From a virus (Duplodnaviria > Heunggongvirae > Uroviricota > Caudoviricetes): a DNA stretch of 36,921 nucleotides. Location of the stretch: the IMG/VR virus record IMGVR_UViG_2531839667_000014, positions 1 to 36,921 of that record; one strand, written 5' to 3'. The first letter of the stretch is position 1. Every line of letters starts with the position of its first letter. Below are positions 1 through 24,278 of this stretch, piece by piece. The position numbers were made by a program, and so were the translations under genes. The notes under the pieces were generated by a model. The model ran no database searches. It was not told the DNA's origin and was given only the letters and a program-made list of their open reading frames with translations.

Positions 1-729
1 TACGGCGTCTTCCGCCGCTATCCTGCTTTGTTCCGCTGACTGTGCGCTTTCTGCTGACTCCCGGGCTTTTTCTGCTGCGGTCGTTGCATCCCTGGATGCA
101 TTACCGGCTGCACTTTCTGCCGTCTTTCTTGACAATTCAGCTTCTGCTGCACTTTGTGATGACTCACTGGCTTTTTGAGCGGCCGCAGAAGCCGAGGACG
201 AGGACGCCTCCTCTGACTGCTTTGCAGCGGCTGCACTTTCTGCCGCCTGCCGGGCTGACTCCGATGCCTCCCCTGCTGAAGTGTCAGCATTTGCAGCGCT
301 CTTTTCTGCCTGACTGGCTGATATGCCGGCATTCCTCGCGGACGTCTCTGCCTCTCCGGCATTCTTCTTCGCCTCCTCTGCGTGACGCGCCACCTCTTCC
401 ACCATCAGTTCAAAACGGCGCAGTGCCTCCGGCCGGACGTCATCCTCCGACATGGCACCGAGAAAATCATTCAGCGTACCGGGTTGAGAATCTTCATACA
501 CGGTGATGGTCCCGGCATGTGACGGAGGAAATCCCTCCACCAACAGAATAACGCTGTACTGACCGTACTCAACGTCCATGCTGTAACGACCGGCTTCATC
601 CGGATTTTCTGAGGCCACCGTGTTCACCACCACCGTGGCGCTGTTACGTCTGGCTTTCAGTTGAATGGTGCAGTTCTCTACCGGTTTTCCTGTGCCGTCT
701 TTCAGTACACCTGAAATCTTTACTGCCAT
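1..729 (-). CDS. stf: side tail fibre protein Stf, N-terminal part; gene runs off the window start
   Basis: ATG at 729..727; I checked the frame is open for all 243 codons down to position 1 (not in the ORF track because it has no stop). Translation begins MAVKISGVLKDGTGKPV..., matching lambda Stf N-terminus from memory, followed by Ala/Ser/Glu-rich repeats. Confidence 0.75.
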   Translation of the reverse strand, partial: MAVKISGVLKDGTGKPVENCTIQLKARRNSATVVVNTVASENPDEAGRYSMDVEYGQYSVILLVEGFPPSHAGTITVYEDSQPGTLNDFLGAMSEDDVRPEALRRFELMVEEVARHAEEAKKNAGEAETSARNAGISASQAEKSAANADTSAGEASESARQAAESAAAAKQSEEASSSSASAAAQKASESSQSAAEAELSRKTAESAAGNASRDATTAAEKARESAESAQSAEQSRIAAEDAV

Positions 730-740
730 ATTCCCCCCAC

Positions 741-766
741 AAAAAAGCCCGCCTGAAACGGCGGGC
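741..766 (-). terminator. rho-independent terminator downstream of lom
   Basis: Minus-strand hairpin GCCCGCC-gtttca-GGCGGGC followed by TTTTTT, about 28 nt after the lom stop. Confidence 0.6.
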
Positions 767-793
767 TGTCATAACACTGTGTTACCTGGCTAA

Positions 794-1393
794 TCAGAAC
801 TTATAACCGACACCCACGATGAAACCGTCAGTGCGCCAGTCACCACTGCCGGAGCCTTCATAAGCAATATCAATGGCCACGGATTCGGTCGGGTTAAACT
901 GCACGCCAGCTCCCCACGCCAGAGACGTGTTGCTGTGGCGACCGTCATCACTTCCGGTCAGCACGTCGTGCGTTTTCCCCTTGTTGTCAGTTACGCGAAG
1001 ATAATCCCCGGAGAAAGTCGACACACGGCTGTAAGCCATACCCGCCATCGCATACGCGCTGAACCATTCATTCACGCGCACAGACGGCCCCGCCATCACG
1101 CTGAACCAGCGGTTACGCACGGAATCTTCATGCCAGCGGGTATCGCTGTAACGGGTAAGCTGGCGATTCTTGTCTCCTGCATAGCTGAATGACGTCACCA
1201 TTCCCAGCGTGTCCGTAAATTCATAACGGTATTTCACGTTAATCCCGTTCAGATCATCGCTGCCGGGAGCGTTCGTCCGGGCATGAAGATACCCCGCGCT
1301 CAGTGTGGACTGATGTTCAGACGCCCATGCAGGCGCACCGGATACGGACAGACAGATGGCTGCGGACAAAATGGCTGCACAAACTTTACGCAT
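794..1393 (-). CDS. lom: Lom/Ail-family outer membrane protein (prophage moron)
   Basis: 199 aa, N-terminal signal peptide, C-terminus ...[24 protein letters not shown] matching lambda Lom from memory; lies directly downstream of J as in lambda. Confidence 0.9.
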
Positions 1394-1416
1394 AATTACC
1401 TCTCGCTTTTCTGCAA

Positions 1417-1441
1417 TAAAAAAGGCGTCATTCCTGACGCC
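1417..1441 (-). terminator. rho-independent terminator between J and lom
   Basis: Minus-strand hairpin GGCGTCA-ggaa-TGACGCC followed by TTTTTTT. Confidence 0.55.
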
Positions 1442-1463
1442 ATTTATTGGGGTTATAAATATT

Positions 1464-4400
1464 TCAACGAATACTGATGCCGGAAGCCGCTTTTTTGGTC
1501 ACAATCACCGTACAGTCGGTGATATTGCCTGCCCCCTGATTGCCTTTCTGGAAAATCTTAAACTCCAGAGTGACGCTACCACCACCACTAGGCATATCAA
1601 TAACTGCACTGTAACTACCGGGAATGGCCCCTTTAGTTTCTCTGGATGCGATTAATACACCGTTTTTGCGAACTTCAAAACCATAACCCGTGTAACTTGT
1701 ACCTCCCGGGTTATTACCACTTCCCGGATAGCTATACGCTATTCCGTTAAAGATAATGGGCGGAATAATGATTTGACGGTCAAAGTTATGATCATCGCTG
1801 ATGGTGACTGTAACCGTCCCGTTTGGTGTTTCCGTGTTACCCCACGTACCAGCCTGTTTCGGGAATGATTTGGATACAGCTTTAACGAAGTCACCTCTGA
1901 CCTGAGTCGCCTCCAGCATGCCCTTAATCGTACAGTTTTCATTTACCGTGACGTTGTTGAGCGTCCCGGAGTTCGCATTCACACTGCCACTGATATCCGC
2001 ATTTTTAGCGGTCAGCTTTCCGTCTGATGTCAGGGAAAATACCGGAGGACTGCCACCACTGGTAATGGTGGGAGCCGTCAGGCGCTTCAGGAACACGTCG
2101 TTCATGAATATCTGATTGCCCTGCGCCACAAACATCGGCGTTTCATTCCCGTTTGCCGGGTCAATAAACGCGATACGGTTAGCGGCAACCAGAAACTGGC
2201 TCAGCTTGCCTTCTTCCGTGTCCTCCATGCTGAGGCCAATACCCGCGACATAATGTTTGCCGTCTTTGGTCTGCTCAATTTTGACGCCCCACATGGCATT
2301 CCATTTATCGTTAGCGTCCTTCCACTCTTTCGAAAACTCCTCCAGTCTGCTGGCGTTATCCTCCGTCAGATCGACTTTTTCCAGCAGCTCCTTGCCGAGA
2401 TGAGATTCGGTTATCTTGCCTTTGAAAAAATCCAGGTAACCTTCCGCATCATCGCTCGCCCGACCGACGGCCTCCACGAATGCCGATTTGCCAACGGTGT
2501 TCACACTGCGAACATAAAAGTAATAATCATGGCCCGGTTTGATATTGATACTGGCGGCTATCCAGTACAGCCCCGTGCCAAGGTAGCGGGCTGTGGTTTC
2601 AACCTGCCTGATATCGGTAATCCGCGTTTCCGAGAACCAGAACTCAAACTGTACCGTCGGATCATAAACCGCAAGATGCGGCGTGGCAGTTATCTGAAAA
2701 TAGCCCGGCGTCAGCTCAATCTGTGACGGCGCTGCCGGTGCGGCAATCCGGAACGATACCGACGCCGGATCGCCCTGCTGTCCCCGGGCATTTACCGCCC
2801 GGACTGTCAGCGTGTAACGCCCCAACGCCAGCTGCCTGAAGCGGTATGTGGTTTCCGTCGTCCGGGCCGTGCTGACCAGCCGCTCACTGCCGTCATCCGC
2901 TGCCACGGTCAGGCGAAGCATAAAGCTCCCCCCCTTCACCACCTTCGGCGTGTCCCAGCGCGCCAGCACCTGGTATTCCCCGCTGTCTGCGGTGACTTCT
3001 GCGGTCAGGTGCTGCACTGCTGGCGGCGTGACACCATTCACCGTGCCGCTCTGGTCGCCGTCAAAGTGCGCCCCGTTATCCACGATGGCCTCTTTCTCCG
3101 GCACATGCTGCACAGCGGTGATGGCATACGTGCCGTCGTCATTCTCACGGATACTCACGCAGCGGAACAGGCGCTGGCGCAGCGTCGGCAGCTTCAGCCC
3201 CCATACGCTGTATTCAGCAACACCGTCAGGAACACGGCTCACTTTTACCTTCACGCCGTCGGTGACGGACTGAACCTCCACGCTGACCGGATTGCCACTT
3301 CCGTCAACCAGGCTTATCAGCGTGGTACCGGAGGATGGCAGCGTGATTTCACGGTCGAGCGTCAGCGTCCGGGTCTGGCTGTTCACCGCCAGCACACGAC
3401 CACCGGTGCTGATACCGGCATAGTCATCATCACAGATTTCAATGACATCGCCCGGCACATGGCGAAGCCCTTCTGCGCCCACGCAGAAGTCCACGGTCTG
3501 CGTTTCCAGCAGTTCTGTTTTAATCAGCCACAGCCCGGCGCGGTGTGCCTGCCCCCGGCTGGTACAGCCAAAAGCATCCATCTTCGTGACGTTACGACCG
3601 TAACGGGCAATGGCCTGCGTATCCTCCACAAGCTCTGTCGCCGTCTCCCAGCCGTTGTCCGGGTCAATCCAGTTCACCTCAACGGCATTATGGCGGTCTT
3701 TCAGGGCGCTGAAGCTGTAGCGGAACGGCGCGCCATCATCCGGCATCACCACATTACTGCGGTTATAGGTCCACACCTTATCCGACGGTCGGTCCTGCAC
3801 GAACGTCAGCGTCTGCCCGTTCCATACCGGCATACAGCGCATCGCCGAGCAGAAATCACTGAGCACATCCCACGCCTTGCGCTGTGTGGTCAGGTACGCA
3901 TTACAGGTGATGCGCGGCTCCGTGCCGCCAAAGCCGTCCGGCACTGACTGGTCGCAGTACTGGCCGATGACATACAGCGCCCATTTGTCCACATCCGCCG
4001 CACCAAGACGTTTCCCCATGCCGTAGCGTGGATGGGTCAGCATATCCCACAGACACCAGGCCATGTTATTGCTGTATGCTGGCTTAAACGTTCCGTCCCA
4101 GATACCGCTGTATTGCCGCGTCTGCGGGTTATAGTTCGACGGCACCTGCAGAATACGCCCGCGCAGATGATAATTACGGCTCACCTGCTGGCTGCCGAAC
4201 TGCTCCGAATCCACCTGTACGCCGACCAGTGCCGTGTTCGGGTAGCACTGTTTCACATCGATGATTTCGGTGTATGACGACCAGAGCGTTTTGTTCTGCA
4301 GCTGGTCTGTGGTGCTGTCCGGCGTCATCCTGCGCATCCGGATATTGAACGGGCGCGGCGGCAGGTTACCCACCACCACCGATGCCAGATACTGTGAGGT

Positions 4401-4877
4401 GGTTTTGCCTTTAATGGTGATGTCTTTTTCCGTCACCCAGCCACCGTTACGCTGTATCTGAACCAGCAGGCGGACTTCCGACGGATTCCGGTCCCCCTTT
4501 GAGGTGGTTTCCACCAGTGCCTGCACACCGAAGGTCAGGCGCAGACGGTCGATGTTTGCAGACGTAATGGTGCGGGTGATCGGCGTGTCATATTTCACTT
4601 CCGTACCCAGCACCGTCTCGGAGCCGGAGGATTCAAACCCCTCCGGCGGTGTCTGCTCCTGCTCACCGGCACGGAACACCACCGTGACACCGGAGATATT
4701 GGTATTCCCCTCACTGTCCAGCACTGGCGTACTGTTCAGCAGCACACTTTTTAATCCGTCCACCGGACCTTCAATCGGCCCTTCACTGATGGCGTCTATC
4801 ACGCTCAGCATCTGGGATGATTTCAGGTTGTCCTTCGCTTCGCGCGGGGTATGCCCCTTACTGCTGCCTTTACCCAT
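1464..4877 (-). CDS. J: host specificity / central tail fibre protein J
   Basis: 1137 aa; N-terminus [20 protein letters not shown]... and most of the length match lambda J from memory; the C-terminal ~150 aa appear divergent. Confidence 0.95.
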
Positions 4878-4937
4878 TCGTCACGCTCCAGAAACGACAA
4901 AACCGCCCTGAGGCGGTTTCACATAAAACATTTTGCA

Positions 4938-5585
4938 TCAGCGACCAATCACCACAACCTGACCACCATCTCCTTCATCTGCCGTGCTGATCTCCTGAGA
5001 AATCACCCGTGACCCCACGCGCATTTCACCGTACAGAACCGGCAGAACATTGCCCTGGGCAACCATGTTATCCAGTGAGGAGAAATAGGTGTTCTGCTTA
5101 CCGTTATCCGTTGTCTGTGTGCGGGGAGTTCTGGCTTTCGGTGCCAGCATCTGAGCCACACCGCCCAGGATCATACTGGCCCCTGCCGCATACATGCCCG
5201 ATACAGCCGCGGCACCCAGCCAGCCCACAGGGTTCCACCATGCCACCGCAATCAGCGCCGCACCCAGCACTGCCTGAAAAACACCGCCACTTTTAGCTCC
5301 CGCCAGACGCGGCACAATGTGGATCACGGCACCATTTGCCAGCGGCTCATTAAGACGGGCAGATAATTCATTTTCTCCTGCATCACGCCCGACAATGCGC
5401 ACCTGATACCAGCCCTCATTCAGTTTCTGACGAAACGCCGGGAGCTGTGTGGCCAGCGCCCGGATGGCTTCGGCCCCCGTTTTCACACGAAGGTCGATGC
5501 GGCGGCCAAATCGTTGCAAATCCCCGTAAAGGCAGATGCGTGCCATGCCCGGTGACGCCAGAGGGAGTGTGTGCGTCGCTGCCAT
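4938..5585 (-). CDS. I: tail assembly protein I
   Basis: 215 aa, MAATHTLPLASPGMARICLYGDLQRFGRR... matches lambda I from memory; sits between K and J. Confidence 0.9.
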   Translation of the reverse strand: MAATHTLPLASPGMARICLYGDLQRFGRRIDLRVKTGAEAIRALATQLPAFRQKLNEGWYQVRIVGRDAGENELSARLNEPLANGAVIHIVPRLAGAKSGGVFQAVLGAALIAVAWWNPVGWLGAAAVSGMYAAGASMILGGVAQMLAPKARTPRTQTTDNGKQNTYFSSLDNMVAQGNVLPVLYGEMRVGSRVISQEISTADEGDGGQVVVIGR

Positions 5586-6226
5586 TTTTCGGTATACCTC
5601 TCTCGTTTGCTCAGTTGTTCAGGAATATGGTGCAGCAGCTCGCCGTCACCACAGTAAATGGCGGCATGATTCGGCACCGATGAACCAAAACAGCACAGCA
5701 GCACATCGCCCGGCTGCGCCGCTGACAACGGCACCTGATACAGCCCTGTGGCCTCCAGATTATCCAGATAGAGATTCTGACCGTTACGCCACCAGTCATC
5801 CTCACGATGAAAATCCGGCATCTCAATCCCCGCCAGATGGTAAGCATCCCGGAACAGCGTGTAACAGTCCGTCACCCCGTGCTCAAAGCGCCGCCCGGTA
5901 AGATGCGGCACACAGCGGAATTTATGAATCGCTCCCCGGCAGACCAGCCACCACGGCAAATCACTCTGCACCTGCAGCCGCCGGTCAGCCTCACTCAGCC
6001 AGGGCAGACCACCGGGGTGGCTGTGGACCAGCGCCACAATCTCACCCTGCATTTCTGCCTGCAGCCAGTCCTCCGGCGACATCCGGAAATAATCTTCCGG
6101 CTCACCGGAGATATTCACGCAGGGAAAATATCTTTCTCCCTCCGGCGTTCTCACCACGAAGCCGCACGACTCCGCTGGCGCACATCGCCGGGCGTGCGCC
6201 AGAATCGCTGATTCTGTCTCTGTCAT
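5483..6226 (-). CDS. K: tail assembly protein K (MPN/JAB plus NlpC/P60-like)
   Basis: 247 aa; HSHP motif and cysteine peptidase-like region; overlaps the start of I as lambda K does. Confidence 0.85.
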   Translation of the reverse strand: MTETESAILAHARRCAPAESCGFVVRTPEGERYFPCVNISGEPEDYFRMSPEDWLQAEMQGEIVALVHSHPGGLPWLSEADRRLQVQSDLPWWLVCRGAIHKFRCVPHLTGRRFEHGVTDCYTLFRDAYHLAGIEMPDFHREDDWWRNGQNLYLDNLEATGLYQVPLSAAQPGDVLLCCFGSSVPNHAAIYCGDGELLHHIPEQLSKRERYTEKWQRRTHSLWRHRAWHASAFTGICNDLAAASTFV

Positions 6227-6231
6227 GGGAT

Positions 6232-6930
6232 TTACTGCGAAAGTTTGTTAATGGAAAGGAAGCCGCCAAAGTTGCCGACATTATTGCGAAACTTACAACC
6301 GCTCAGGCATTTGCTGCATTTATCCTTCGTGATATCGGATGTCGGCTGGTCATATTCATCCGCGACCGCCGGACCGTGATAACCGCACTCATCACCGCGA
6401 TAGGTCCAGGTACAGGTGTTGGCCAGCATGGTGCGCCCCGGAAAAACAGCGCCATCCGTTTCCGTCGGCGTGGACAGTACAAAAGAGGCACTGACTGCGC
6501 TCAGTTCGCTGCACTGCTCGATGCGCCAGCGGCTGATCGCCTCCTGCTCCGGGTCTGCGTCGATGTTTCCGTTGACGAAGTTCACCGCATCCAGAAAACG
6601 GGCGTAAACCTTACGCCTGACCACCGTTCCGCCGACCAGACTCTGCAAATCTTCCACCATCCCGGTGACCATGCCGTGCAGATTAGAGACTTTCAGCGTT
6701 GGCCTGGCGCTGGCTCCTTTACCGTTCATCTCAAATCCCGTCCCCTGAATGGGATAGGCCTGATACTGCCGCCCCTGCCAGATGACCGATTCGCCTTTTT
6801 CGTTCTGCTCATTACAGAAAAAATAACGCTCTCCGCCGACTTCTGTCAGATCGACTTCCCAGAGCACGACCAGCGCGGATTGCTCCGCTTTTGTACACTC
6901 ATTCAGTGTTTCCTGCTGTATATCCTGCAT
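6232..6930 (-). CDS. L: minor tail protein L
   Basis: 232 aa, same length and position as lambda L; cysteine cluster near the C-terminus. Confidence 0.85.
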   Translation of the reverse strand: MQDIQQETLNECTKAEQSALVVLWEVDLTEVGGERYFFCNEQNEKGESVIWQGRQYQAYPIQGTGFEMNGKGASARPTLKVSNLHGMVTGMVEDLQSLVGGTVVRRKVYARFLDAVNFVNGNIDADPEQEAISRWRIEQCSELSAVSASFVLSTPTETDGAVFPGRTMLANTCTWTYRGDECGYHGPAVADEYDQPTSDITKDKCSKCLSGCKFRNNVGNFGGFLSINKLSQ

Positions 6931-7229
6931 CAGTGAGTGACCTCTTCAAAGGTACAGTTAAAATCGGTATACATGGCATTATCCGAAATACTCCACTCCC
7001 TGCAGACAACCCGGACGGTTCTGTTGTGTTTTGGCGGACGCCACAAAAAAGCACGTATCCCGGCATGACGGGATAAAAAACTGTCCAGCGCAGCACGGGA
7101 ATATTCATCTGTGACACGAAACACCGGTTTAAACGTTTTCAGATCCGCATTCAGACCACCAGCCCGTCGCTGTTCATATCCGTCACCGAACTTTACCGTA
7201 ATAACAGATGGCTTTCGTGTCGTCTCCAT
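6930..7229 (-). CDS. M: minor tail protein M
   Basis: Track ORF 6930..7316 is probably over-extended; the internal Met (METTRKPSVITVKFGDGYEQR...) at 7229 gives ~99 aa, similar to lambda M; start site uncertain. Confidence 0.7.
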   Translation of the reverse strand: METTRKPSVITVKFGDGYEQRRAGGLNADLKTFKPVFRVTDEYSRAALDSFLSRHAGIRAFLWRPPKHNRTVRVVCREWSISDNAMYTDFNCTFEEVTH

Positions 7230-7263
7230 CCCCTCGCGGGGGATCCAGTTAAAAACTTCAGAC

Positions 7264-10200
7264 TCAGGCACTGCATAATCCTCCGTCCCGACGTGATGAC
7301 TGCATAATTGACACAACCCTGCTGTCGATCAGATCCACCAGCCCCCTGGCTGACTGCGTATCTGTCTCGCCATTGCTCCCTTGATTCTGAATGCTGATGT
7401 GATACACGGGAGAATAAACAAATCCACCGCCACCATTCACATTGCCAATGGCTCTGACTCCAAGAGAGCCGTCCGCTGCCCGAGTCAGTGGCATGATAGC
7501 TTCAGGCCCGGCCTCGCCCATCAGCCCGGCACCTTTCGCAAAAGCAAAATACGTCGGTGTATCCACAATGGTGTTACTGTAAGCACTCAGATTTGCCGAT
7601 GTGTAAACACCACCTTTTGCGTTTGCCACTGCACCGGAAAGCCAGTCGCCGACCGTACCAAGCCATCCTCCGGCACCGGACATGCTTTTGGAAAGTGACT
7701 TCAGCCCGTTAACGATGGCAGCGTTCATCAGAATTTTTGAAACTTCCTGGAGAATTGAACTCCCCCAGTTTCTCCAGTCCACAACATTCCCGGCCAGTGC
7801 ATCGGAAATATTTGATACCAGCCCGTCCATAGTGGAAACGACAGCATCTGCCGCCTGCGAAGCATAATCAGTGGCACTGTCTGCCCAGTTCGTCAGTCCC
7901 TCCTGGAGTCCGGCATTCCAGTTACTGCGTAAAGCATCAGCCTTTGCATAATAATCCTGCTGATCGTTGAGACGCTCTTCCAGATATTTTTCATTCAGTG
8001 CTTTTTCCTGTTTCCACAGGGATTCTTCAATTTCTCCGGTCTGATACTGTCTCAGCAGCTCATTATTTTTCTGCTCAAACGCCTGCCGGATACTCCACAT
8101 TTCCTGAAGTCGTTCACGCATCCGTGAGCCTTCACCATATCCCAGTAACTGAGCCTCATTTGATGCTCTGACACTGGCGTTACTGTCCGCCAGACTGCTT
8201 TCATACGCGGCAAGCTGCTCGCGAATTTTTTTCTGGTCGATGAGTGCCGCATTCTGTAAAAGCGTTTTTTTCTGCGCTTCTGACAGGGTTGATAATTCGC
8301 CCTGACTGACCTGATATTTCATCTTAGCCAGTTCAGTATTTTGCCCTGCCAGTGCTATTTGTTCTTTTTGCTGTTTAATCAGCCATTTATAAATATCTTC
8401 TGTTTTTTCCGCTTCGGTCTTTTTATGTGTTTTGGGTTTATTTGCCTGGTTATTTCGCCATGCATCCAGTGAGTTATTGATATAATTCTGTCTGGCTGTC
8501 TGATACGCCTCCCCCACAAAACCAAGATCATCCGCAACATAGCCCAGTCTGGCACGCTCACGCGCTTCCCCCTTCAGACGGGACAGAGCCAGTTCGCGCT
8601 TGCTGTTATTCAGTGCAGTCTGCTGCTTATCATCCAGAGTGGCCTGTGGCAGCCGTAATGGTGCAGTCACCAGCCCCTGTCGCTGCTGAAGTAATTCATT
8701 ACCAAGCCCGAGAAGGCGATTAAACTCGGTATACTGCCCGTTCATGATCAACAGGGACTGATACGCTTTGTTTTGTTCCGCCGCCTGTTGACGGATCAAC
8801 GCCACCCGTCGCTCCTCCAGCCCGGCAAGCACATCCTGAATGGATTGCGCTTTGCCCTGCATTTGAGTGAGGCGAGACTGTTCAACTGCCAGTTGATTTG
8901 TTGCTTCTGCAAGCCCTTCTGTGACAGTTTTTACCGACGTCATGTAGTTAATCATAAAACCGTTATCGGTTGTCCAGCCCGGGTTTGCCAGCACATACTG
9001 ATAGCCAGCAATTTTTTCCTGTAAGGATTTAATCTTACTTTTCTGCTCGTCAATTAACCTGTTCTGCTCCTTCAGTGCCTGCCGCGTCTTTTCTTCATTA
9101 TCTGACGTTTCAGGAAGCGACATTGCCGACGTTTTCTGGCGAATTTCGTCGATTGTTGCGGCATACTGGCGTGCAGATTCTCTGGCCTGCTCCTGATTCT
9201 GATACATTGTGTACCAGGCCGTCGCCCCCAGCATGACGAGTCCCGGCACACCACCAACCAGCCCCAGCGCACCACTTAACAGACGGCTCCCCACTGACGT
9301 GACATTATTCAGCGTTGTCTGTGCCGCTGTTCTGGCCGCAATATTACGGGTAAGTGACGCCTGGGCAACTGTCAGCTTCGCTTCTGCTGCGGCCTGCCTT
9401 TCGGTACCGCGAGCAGCAACAACCGCCTGTTGCGCACGATAAACCGCCGCACGCGCCCTGGCGGTTGCTATCTGTGTCCCCCGGAGTTGCGCTTCCGCAA
9501 GAGCCACTTCGTTTCTGGCAGCAGTAATTAATCCGGCAGTTGCAGATCCAGCAGAAGCCGCCATATTGCCAAAATATCGGGCTACCCCGACGGCAACCAG
9601 AGCACCGGCAGCGGTTGCCACGGTGTCAATATTGCCTGCAATACCATTCAGCACCCCGGAGAGCGTCTTCGTCACTCCGCTTGCCTCGTTCGCACCACCA
9701 ACCCAGGCCATAAAGGCGTTTTCAACTTTGGTTGCAGAGGATGAAACCGTATCAGGCATTGCTGCATATTCATCACGCAACGCCCCAAGCTGACTAATCA
9801 GTGCAGGAACAACCTTATCGGCGGTCAGTTTTCCGTTATCCGCCATGGCCTTCAGATCCTTACGGGCAACGCCCATTCCCGCAGCCAGCGCACGAATAAC
9901 ACGATCACCGCTCTCATTCACGGCGTTAAATTCTTCACCGCGCAGCACTCCCTGCGCCAGTGCCTGGCTGAACTGCGTGATCACCGAACTGGCTTCTGCT
10001 GTACTGGCACCGGATAATTTCAGGCCCGTGGAGATCGCCTCGGTGACTTTCAGTACCTCCTCAGAACTGTAACCATACTCCCGCATGGAAGCTGCAGAGC
10101 GGGCAAAAAGGCTGGCGTTATCAGAAAAAGCCGTCCCCGTTCTCTGGCTGATTGCCATTAATTCACGTTGTGATGCCTGAAAATCATCACTGGACTGCGT

Positions 10201-10509
10201 GGCCTGCTTCAGACGGGCATTTACTGAATTCCACTCATCGGCGAGAGAAATTAGATGACCGGTAGCAAAAGCCCCGGCAAATGCCCCCGCCATATTCAGT
10301 GCCGAAGATTTAGCTGTATTTATCTGATCCGTCACTTCTGCCAGTGCACGCCGCATTTCACGGGATGCGGCAGCGGACTGCCGGCCTCCGTTCTGCATGG
10401 TACGGTAGTAATCCTGCCCCATACGCGAAGCCCGGGAGATCTCTGACTGGAATGACCGGGAATTTGCCGAGATTTTAATAATCAGTTCACGTAATGTCGC
10501 CACACTCAT
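7264..10509 (-). CDS. H: tail tape measure protein H
   Basis: 1081 aa, long Ala/Gln-rich coiled-coil region with hydrophobic segments; position between GT chaperone and M. Confidence 0.9.
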   Translation of the reverse strand: MSVATLRELIIKISANSRSFQSEISRASRMGQDYYRTMQNGGRQSAAASREMRRALAEVTDQINTAKSSALNMAGAFAGAFATGHLISLADEWNSVNARLKQATQSSDDFQASQRELMAISQRTGTAFSDNASLFARSAASMREYGYSSEEVLKVTEAISTGLKLSGASTAEASSVITQFSQALAQGVLRGEEFNAVNESGDRVIRALAAGMGVARKDLKAMADNGKLTADKVVPALISQLGALRDEYAAMPDTVSSSATKVENAFMAWVGGANEASGVTKTLSGVLNGIAGNIDTVATAAGALVAVGVARYFGNMAASAGSATAGLITAARNEVALAEAQLRGTQIATARARAAVYRAQQAVVAARGTERQAAAEAKLTVAQASLTRNIAARTAAQTTLNNVTSVGSRLLSGALGLVGGVPGLVMLGATAWYTMYQNQEQARESARQYAATIDEIRQKTSAMSLPETSDNEEKTRQALKEQNRLIDEQKSKIKSLQEKIAGYQYVLANPGWTTDNGFMINYMTSVKTVTEGLAEATNQLAVEQSRLTQMQGKAQSIQDVLAGLEERRVALIRQQAAEQNKAYQSLLIMNGQYTEFNRLLGLGNELLQQRQGLVTAPLRLPQATLDDKQQTALNNSKRELALSRLKGEARERARLGYVADDLGFVGEAYQTARQNYINNSLDAWRNNQANKPKTHKKTEAEKTEDIYKWLIKQQKEQIALAGQNTELAKMKYQVSQGELSTLSEAQKKTLLQNAALIDQKKIREQLAAYESSLADSNASVRASNEAQLLGYGEGSRMRERLQEMWSIRQAFEQKNNELLRQYQTGEIEESLWKQEKALNEKYLEERLNDQQDYYAKADALRSNWNAGLQEGLTNWADSATDYASQAADAVVSTMDGLVSNISDALAGNVVDWRNWGSSILQEVSKILMNAAIVNGLKSLSKSMSGAGGWLGTVGDWLSGAVANAKGGVYTSANLSAYSNTIVDTPTYFAFAKGAGLMGEAGPEAIMPLTRAADGSLGVRAIGNVNGGGGFVYSPVYHISIQNQGSNGETDTQSARGLVDLIDSRVVSIMQSSRRDGGLCSA

Positions 10510-10519
10510 TCTCCGGACG

Positions 10520-10541
10520 AAAAAAAACCGCCGAAGCGGTT
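10520..10541 (-). terminator. terminator-like hairpin between T and H
   Basis: Minus-strand hairpin ACCGC-ttcg-GCGGT followed by an 8-T run, inside the 40-nt gap between the T stop and the H start. Confidence 0.5.
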
Positions 10542-10549
10542 ATGTTGAC

Positions 10550-10861
10550 TCACTGAGACACTATTAAAAGCGCGTTTTCCAGTCCGGCAAATGGATCTGA
10601 TACGCCTTCTGTCTGCTCCTTCTCCCACTGAAGAAGCGCATCATTCAGTGGCACTTTGACCCCCTGCGCACCGTAAACAGCTGAAACAATCTGGGCAGCC
10701 CGGATATCAGCCCGTTCGTCCCCCAGCGGACTGAACCTGTCAAATTCTGCCCACATCATGATTTCTGATGCTGACATTTCCCGGCGTAACTCTGACAATG
10801 TGCGCCCCATCCTGAGCGCCAGCATCATCAGAAAACGCATCCCCGGAAGCGCTACTTTTTT
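10550..10861 (-). CDS. T: tail assembly chaperone T segment, expressed as a G-T fusion by -1 frameshift
   Basis: ORF in the -1 frame relative to G; reading from the slippery site gives ...KKVALPGMRFLMMLALRMGRT...; contains a DRFSPLGDERAD segment typical of lambda gpT-like proteins. Confidence 0.75.
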   Translation of the reverse strand, partial: KKVALPGMRFLMMLALRMGRTLSELRREMSASEIMMWAEFDRFSPLGDERADIRAAQIVSAVYGAQGVKVPLNDALLQWEKEQTEGVSDPFAGLENALLIVSQ

Positions 10862-22502: not shown

Positions 22503-22717
22503 TATTCACCTCTCGCAGCCTTTCTTCTGTCTTCTCTGATTTTGAAGTACAGATTTGTCAGATAAGTCAGGAAGCCCAGAACCAGACTCCCCAGTACACC
22601 AATCGCAGCCCACTGTGACGGACTGACCTGATCAAGCCACTGTAAAAACCAGTAGCCAGCACTGCCTGCGGAGGTGCCGTAGGCAATGCCCGTTGAAATT
22701 TTGTCCATGGATTTCAT
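22502..22717 (-). CDS. S: pinholin S21 with dual-start motif
   Basis: 71 aa [14 protein letters not shown]... with two TM segments; Met1-Lys-Ser-Met4 dual start as in phage 21 S (S21-71 antiholin / S21-68 holin). Confidence 0.9.
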
Positions 22718-22773
22718 AGCCTCACCTCCGCAAATAACGGATGGCGTAGTTTTACACTGAGAGATGAAAGGGA

Positions 22774-22802
22774 TTTGAAAAGAAAAGCCCGCAAAAGCGG
22801 GC
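22774..22802 (-). terminator. terminator-like hairpin upstream of the lysis cassette
   Basis: Minus-strand GCCCGC-tttt-GCGGGC followed by TTTTCTTTTC. Confidence 0.45.
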
Positions 22803-23009
22803 GAAATTGGATCTACAGTCAGGAAAGCACTCTATCCAACAAACCACCCACAGTTAATCGGAATAAAAGCAGAGCGCTTATGAATGATCGCCTGCCCGAA
22901 GGTTAGTATTTCTGCACAGCAATTTTGCAAAAAAAAGCGATCATTCATAACTTAAACGTCTTTCAGTCACTCCGGGCTTTCCCATCATCGCAGACTGAAA
23001 GACTCTAAC

Positions 23010-23084
<75 letters not shown>

Positions 23085-23087
23085 ATA

Positions 23088-23163
<76 letters not shown>

Positions 23164-23351
23164 ATTGGTTCTTCGGGTGTGAATGAGATGCCCGGATACA
23201 TAATTTACCCTTCCCTCGGAACCGCAGAGATAATACAAATAAATAACCAGAATTCAATATTTGCTTATTCGTCTGTCGAAAAATCCAGCAAGATGAAAGA
23301 ACCGTATTCGCAACCACCAGCGTGTTTAATGTACCGTACCGCTTTTCAGGC

Positions 23352-23377
23352 ATAAAAAACCCGCTCGGAGGCGGGCT
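23352..23377 (-). terminator. rho-independent terminator downstream of the late promoter (tR'-like)
   Basis: Minus-strand AGCCCGCC-tccga-GCGGGTT followed by TTTTTAT. Confidence 0.65.
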
Positions 23378-23423
23378 GTAAAATTCTTCTAACGTCAGGC
23401 ATAAAACGCCCATCGTTATGGAA

Positions 23424-23451
23424 AATTTACCACAAATTCGGGAAAAATCAA
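23424..23451 (-). promoter_or_regulatory. late promoter PR'-like (-35 TTGATT, -10 TAAATT) with Q-utilisation region
   Basis: Minus strand TTGATT-N16-TAAATT then ...AACGATGGG..., resembling the lambda PR' segment GGGTAAATTTGACTCAACGATGGG as I recall it; directly downstream of the Q-like gene. Confidence 0.6.
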
Positions 23452-23456
23452 CAACA

Positions 23457-24278
23457 CTATCGCGTTACCCTCTTTAACTGCCGCTCCGCCCATGTCTCTT
23501 CAATGTCAAACCGAACCACCAACGTATCGTAAAAGCGTTTCACTGATTTTTTCCACGTATCAAGCGTGATAGCACTCGTCACTTTACATATGGCATTAAA
23601 TGCCTCCGTTGATGGCAGTCTTTCATAGCCCCGACCACCACAACGCTGGCAGTTCCTGATTACAGGCATACCCCGTTTTTCCGACTCTTCACGATGAATG
23701 GCAACACCACGCCCACGGCAGTCTTTACAGGCAGTGGAAATCTCCCCCTTCCCTTTACATTCAGGACAGGAAACTTTCACCACCTCCCGGATTTTTTTCC
23801 ATTCTTCCCAGTAAGACGGATACACACCCTTCGTACACTTTGCCCATACTGGCGGCTTGCCATCCGGATACTGGACCTTGTTTGTAAAAACTTCGCTTTC
23901 AATAAATTTTTCCCCATGGCAACAAGGGCACTGCTTTTTACTCGCTGCGCTGCGGGCATAATCCTCAAAAGCATACGAAGCCATAATGCGCATCACTGCC
24001 GGTTTTATTTCTGCCGGAAGTTTTCTTAACGCCGCCACGCGATCGCACTGACTTAATGCATAATCTGCCAGTAATTCTGTTGCCCGCGCCCTGTCATTCA
24101 TACTAATGCCCATTTTCCCCAGGAACGCAGAAAATCCCATCTCAGCACGGTTTTGTGTCATACCCTGCGCAGCCATCACATCAGTGATACTCAGCGTATC
24201 TTTTGACGTCGAGACGGATGCATCAGTCAGGCCAGGCGATTTTGGGGAGTAGTATTTCGGTAAATCTTCCAGCTTCAT
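23457..24278 (-). CDS. Q: late antiterminator Q-like protein (zinc-binding)
   Basis: 273 aa with several CxxC pairs; located between rusA and the PR'-like promoter; ATGA overlap with rusA. Confidence 0.65.
   Translation of the reverse strand: MKLEDLPKYYSPKSPGLTDASVSTSKDTLSITDVMAAQGMTQNRAEMGFSAFLGKMGISMNDRARATELLADYALSQCDRVAALRKLPAEIKPAVMRIMASYAFEDYARSAASKKQCPCCHGEKFIESEVFTNKVQYPDGKPPVWAKCTKGVYPSYWEEWKKIREVVKVSCPECKGKGEISTACKDCRGRGVAIHREESEKRGMPVIRNCQRCGGRGYERLPSTEAFNAICKVTSAITLDTWKKSVKRFYDTLVVRFDIEETWAERQLKRVTR

Follow-up and report, generated by a model that had tools for sequence, protein, structure and literature searches.

The J tail-tip protein of a lambda-like Escherichia coli prophage carries a C-terminal cassette of the phage 434 (h434) type

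Gene J of the prophage described here raises a question of host range. Its product follows lambda J closely along most of its length and departs from it at the C-terminal end, which in lambda binds LamB, and it may be asked to which type this end belongs, how it came to be joined to a lambda-like body, and which receptor it would recognise. The window is the whole stretch of DNA that was analysed, 36,921 nucleotides of a virus record (IMGVR_UViG_2531839667_000014), and the features discussed below are collected in Table 1.

J is the tip attachment protein of a lambda-like E. coli prophage. The 3414-nt reading frame contains neither a frameshift nor a premature stop in the list of open reading frames, and its product carries the Pfam series FNIII-A_GpJ, Phage-tail_3, Ig_J, Ig_J_second, Phage_Tail_Tip and Ig_GpJ_C, all far above their cut-offs, and matches the solved lambda J chains (8iyk and others) with E = 0 in phmmer. 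Gene calls and Pfam assignments on the source contig place J after homologues of the tape measure, M, L, K and I genes and before lom and stf, and in lambda, 434 and the present prophage alike J closes the tail gene block in this way. The body of the protein comprises hub domains, FNIII domains, a helical shaft and a beta-prism fibre (names as given by Pfam and by the lambda structure paper). Overlapping reading frames on the plus strand and in the other minus frames (1356..1655, 1739..1942 and 1918..2115) were set aside as chance frames inside or across a well-supported gene.

The prophage as a whole is a mosaic, with at most 67% of its first 24 kb (window 1..24000) covered by any one phage record; J matches lambda- and 434-like phages, and HK97-family domains (HK97-gp10_like, Phage_HK97_TLTM) are found in the genes for the head and the proximal tail. 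The window begins inside stf, where contig AFAF02000004.1 (GCA_000194665.2) ends. The start region of this gene aligns with lambda and 434 stf, and E. coli genomes annotate a prophage tail fibre N-terminal domain there; because the window holds just this conserved N-terminal part, the side-fibre specificity of the prophage is unreadable from it.

Table 1. Position of J, its parts and neighbouring features in the window.
Feature	Position	Strand	Basis
J (tip attachment protein / central tail fibre)	1464..4877	-	longest ORF over the region; 1137 aa; intact
Conserved J body, codons 1-973	1958..4877	-	96.7% aa and 95.4% nt identity to lambda J, gapless
Specificity cassette in J, codons 974-1137 + stop, 434/h434 type	1464..1957	-	92.7% to 434, 38% to lambda
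Ig-like receptor-binding domain proper, aa 1001-1136	1470..1877	-	Pfam PF12421 Ig_GpJ_C
Block non-homologous to lambda: J codons 974-1137, spacer, most of lom	873..1957 (about)	-	~1085 bp; window/434/lambda alignment
Terminator-like hairpin just 3' of the J stop	1424..1441	-	consensus scan; terminator annotated at the equivalent place in 434
lom (Ail/Lom outer-membrane beta-barrel), 434 type	794..1393	-	199 aa; ORF list; Pfam Ail_Lom
stf 5' part, side tail fibre	1..729	-	called gene running to the contig end; cut by the window/contig end
IS100 (IS21 family)	~11198..13151	-	istB 11264..12046, istA 12043..13065

The prophage also carries a copy of IS100, 99.5-99.8% identical to annotated copies of this element and bounded by 28-nt imperfect terminal inverted repeats. 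The element has inserted after the major tail gene (13197..13901) and ahead of the tail chaperone gene (10852..11187), and late transcription reaches it before J. An insertion at this place may be polar on the tail operon, J included, and J may have ceased to be produced as part of working virions. It is therefore possible, if on balance doubtful, that the prophage is defective and its J a leftover with no present function, whatever its specificity: the position of the element on the upstream side of J, in the same direction of transcription, favours such a reading, but J has kept its full length with an uninterrupted frame, the insertion is intergenic, and the gene calls show the adjacent tail genes as intact.

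Comparison with lambda J (J02459 15505-18903) by BLASTP gives an identity of 88% overall, with the difference concentrated at the C-terminal end. Residues 1-973 align without a gap and are identical at 941 of 973 positions (96.7%), with a DNA identity of 95.4% over J nt 1-2919, whereas residues 974-1137 are 38% identical (64/170 aligned columns) with four gaps. In 100-nt windows the DNA identity is 87-99% before J nt ~2921 and about 45-50% from there on; the divergent block opens at codon 974 (window position 1957), the first to differ, and the DNA of the C-terminal segment has no blastn match to lambda. The initial annotation had described most of J as near-identical to lambda J and its C-terminus as different from the LamB-binding end of that protein, and both statements agree with the pairwise alignment; far from being conserved with lambda J throughout, the C-terminus departs from it abruptly and far beyond chance. 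The start of the divergent part had been set at 1950 (a motif from N979), within 7 nt of the border found here, and its extent was underestimated at the last ~150 residues, the actual number being 164.

The four gaps lie at lambda residues ~1012, 1048-49, 1077-78 and 1107, which are reported indel hot spots. A published study of natural J homologues named residues 960-1132 the specificity region, reported it as fast-evolving and with a history different from that of the rest of J, and defined the J lineages by indels at these same residues. A J of the LamB-binding type would be lambda-like over its last 160 residues, including those around 1012 and 1107; the window protein, at the low identity given above, has gaps at all four hot spots. 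Its likeness to lambda J (P03749; PDB 8iyk, 8xcj and 8xck) thus lies in the order of the domains, in the body and in the Ig-like C-terminal fold, and its difference in the last 164 residues and in the lom gene, which in lambda is of another type.

The divergent end of J is, by its alignment, the receptor-binding domain of phage 434, the classical h434 host-range allele. Window J and 434 J (OL657226 15505-18918) are equal in length and 97% identical over all 1137 residues; within residues 974-1137 the match is gapless, with 152/164 residues identical (92.7%), and 434 J shares the same four indels relative to lambda and is followed by a lom of the same type. The differences in this segment (window to 434) are V978I, E980Q, S1004A, Q1008K, A1009V, N1019D, S1049D, Y1050D, S1061R, I1108V, Q1110H and G1115R. 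Many phage records match the whole J gene at 95-97.5% DNA identity, among them 434, lambda h434 imm21, mEp460, Perceval and 2B8. An even closer relative is found in a different prophage and host, the enteropathogenic E. coli O127:H6 strain E2348/69, in which the corresponding J (NC_011601 761819-765232, WP_000515449.1) is 100% identical to the window over residues 974-1137 and differs by a single residue upstream of the cassette (S970A); the 494-nt cassettes are 1 nt apart, and downstream of them the order of lom and the side fibre genes is the same.

This segment behaves as a discrete unit in the sequence record. The 487-nt J end alone finds matches of 92-99% in 74 phage records with blastn, and at the protein level tblastn divides the phage records into 74 with a domain identity of 90-99%, the group to which the window belongs, and 169 below 60%, with none between, the best among the matches listed below 60% having 51% identity over 44% of the query. 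The same gap is seen for the domain in a large protein database. Since identities in the phage records are either 90-99% or below 60%, without intermediates, the 434-type end can be regarded as a discrete cassette, and it is carried by otherwise different phages and prophages and present in 2114 of 5426 complete E. coli genomes. The 434-type cassette is a very common and already described module swap, real and ordinary and not new.

In structural terms the cassette is predicted to keep the C-terminal Ig-like fold of lambda gpJ. Residues 1001-1136 score 91.8 bits against PF12421 (cut-off 26.2), and an AlphaFold2 model of residues 958-1137, computed as a monomer from 57 homologues, is all-beta with a mean pLDDT of 85.7. 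The four top Foldseek matches of this model in the PDB (E 8e-16 to 1.5e-15, TM about 0.7) are the receptor-binding domains of lambda gpJ (8xcj/8xck) and of A8 gpJ (9wcb/9wca), in closed and LamB- or OmpC-bound states, and the next matches, at E about 5e-5, are ten orders of magnitude weaker. The A8 chimera (PDB 9wca, and 9wcb with the OmpC of EDL933) shares the fold and is of another cassette type, about 48-50% identical; the 1A2 chimera represents a further type, with C-terminal DNA that is clearly different on reading. These two engineered OmpC-binding gpJ variants, considered as possible members of the 434 type, were accordingly rejected, being about 50% identical or less.

With regard to the receptor, two papers, both reviews, report that 434 uses OmpC and that giving lambda the 434 J gene changes its receptor from LamB to OmpC. 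Comparison of the sequenced lambda h434 imm21 hybrid (OM418627) with both parents places the change from lambda, which extends up to J nt 2115, to 434, which begins at nt 2133, and the 434-derived part of this hybrid also includes lom, stf and tfa. Because these genes are present, the OmpC use of the classical hybrids could, taken alone, be due to either J or the side fibre. Independent support that the J end suffices for a receptor switch comes, by analogy, from two other cassette types: the exchange of gpJ from residue 964 only for the natural E. coli prophage C-termini A8 and 1A2, in particles with no lambda side fibre, changed delivery from LamB to OmpC. The receptor of window J, extrapolated to the present allele from the 434 type, is thus most likely OmpC and not LamB. 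A 2026 preprint of a receptor screen, the extended BASEL paper and the ECOR13 paper contain no receptor data for phages with the 434-type cassette. Phage 21, first taken for an OmpC-specific phage, was dropped as a comparison, since a published study gives LamB as its native receptor; it gains OmpC by one J mutation, and in phages of this kind a single change can be enough to add a porin.

The alleles of the 434 type are not uniform, and their variation bears on this assignment. Among 24 sequences of the type, recurrent variation is limited to positions 978, 980, 1004, 1008/1009, 1019, 1049/1050, 1061, 1099, 1108/1110 and 1115; 12 of these recurrently variable sites distinguish the window allele from 434, and it has the less common residues S1049-Y1050 and S1061. 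Relative to synonymous codon differences, nonsynonymous ones between window and 434 are more frequent in the cassette (12/20) than in the body (21/97; Fisher p = 0.028). Furthermore, the laboratory allele of the hybrid (OM418627) differs from wild-type 434 J, over the 434-derived part, by D1050N and R1115W only, and both sites also vary among the natural 434-type alleles, the window allele included. This coincidence is suggestive of tuning to receptor variants. An enrichment of variable sites in predicted loops over strands was not significant in what is a crude test (7/44 versus 8/87, p = 0.26). A tentative proposal, which we would consider doubtful at present, is that positions 1049/1050, 1061, 1099, 1108/1110 and 1115 form a fine-tuning code for OmpC variants, and that the range of the S1049-Y1050-S1061-G1115 allele found in the window and in E2348/69 may differ from that of 434.

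A stronger departure from the receptor of 434, in which the same cassette, by virtue of S1049, Y1050, S1061, G1115 and other residues, would recognise another porin (OmpF or LamB, or just certain OmpC variants absent from K-12), appears improbable. The dozen differences in 164 residues and the raised nonsynonymous ratio would be compatible with it, as would the fact that the naturally variable sites include both h434 changes, that other gpJ cassettes discriminate between OmpC variants, and that phage 21 needs a single mutation to gain OmpC; however, the domain is 92.7% identical to one with OmpC as its reported receptor, the allele is common and recurs unchanged in E2348/69, and nothing points to a specific alternative receptor. 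OmpC therefore remains the preferred assignment.

As to how the 434-type cassette came to be joined to the lambda-like body, the borders of the divergent block are informative. On the upstream side it is preceded by a 67-nt stretch identical to lambda, ending at J nt 2920, and on the downstream side lambda-like sequence resumes near nt 4005, counted from the J start, with ~75 nt of lom remaining; past the block, the lom terminator and the start of stf are again about 95% identical to lambda. The block that is swapped relative to lambda thus consists of the J end, the spacer and ~174 codons of lom (873..1393), a gene with a nucleotide identity of 93-99% to 434 and about 45-60% to lambda. Because the swapped block spans both, the receptor-binding domain and the type of lom travel together in the window and in 434.

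The acquisition of the cassette by recombinational exchange, as opposed to divergence in place, is supported by the sharp borders between conserved flanks, by the fact that identity is lost at synonymous and nonsynonymous sites alike, and by the lack of intermediates. Gradual divergence of the C-terminus from a lambda-like ancestor under strong selection, without exchange of a module, is highly implausible: although the domain is homologous to that of lambda, shares its fold and is known to evolve fast, the DNA identity drops from ~95% to ~48% within a few bases with synonymous sites lost as well, the block of low identity continues through the spacer and lom and then ends sharply, and the cassette, for which intermediates at 60-90% identity are absent, sits on phages that differ in their other genes. 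The modular exchange proposed in the initial annotation is in this way corroborated by the sharp borders, by the gap between 90-99% and less than 60% identity, and by the occurrence of the cassette on differing phages and prophages. The exchanged receptor-recognition domain is borne out as well, with the qualification that its type is the classical h434 allele and implies nothing new, and the different host receptor that had been envisaged gains indirect support from the 434-type cassette taken with the literature reports of OmpC for 434.

Taken together, the observations would be explained by a J that forms a trimeric central tail fibre composed of conserved lambda-type machinery (973 residues) and a separately inherited 434-type cassette (164 residues). 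The cassette would have entered by homologous recombination between the flanks: on the upstream side the lambda-identical stretch, and on the downstream side the lom 3' end with its terminator and the beginning of stf. When lambda binds LamB, the three Ig-like domains of its fibre each push four loops at their lower end into the extracellular face of the porin trimer; the domain trimer widens at the bottom and closes at the top, and a relay through the beta-prism and the helical shaft opens the tail tip. By analogy with the lambda gpJ-LamB and A8 gpJ-OmpC complexes, the three copies of the window domain would dock onto a trimeric porin, for the 434 type most likely OmpC, and docking would be relayed up the fibre so that the tail tip opens and DNA is ejected. 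Since the body is 96.7% identical to that of lambda, we infer the same relay for window J, with only the docking surface changed. To this explanation as a whole, a 434-type cassette acquired by recombination and an Ig-like domain docking on a porin that is likely OmpC, we would assign a probability of roughly 0.8.

Genes for type III secretion effectors (homologues of nleB, nleC and nleH) lie downstream of the tail fibre genes stf-tfa in both 434 and the E2348/69 prophage, and on account of these downstream genes the 434-type tail module may be said to be often linked to virulence cargo.

The present case is one more textbook example of the mosaic exchange of receptor-binding modules among lambdoid phages, in a family of sequences in which J residues 960-1132 have already been analysed at scale, and it carries little weight beyond the correct annotation of a prophage with a 434-type host-range module. 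As the prophage carries this module, OmpC rather than LamB is predicted as its requirement. The practical use of such an assignment would lie in the prediction of prophage receptors from sequence and in selecting gpJ modules when lambda particles are engineered.
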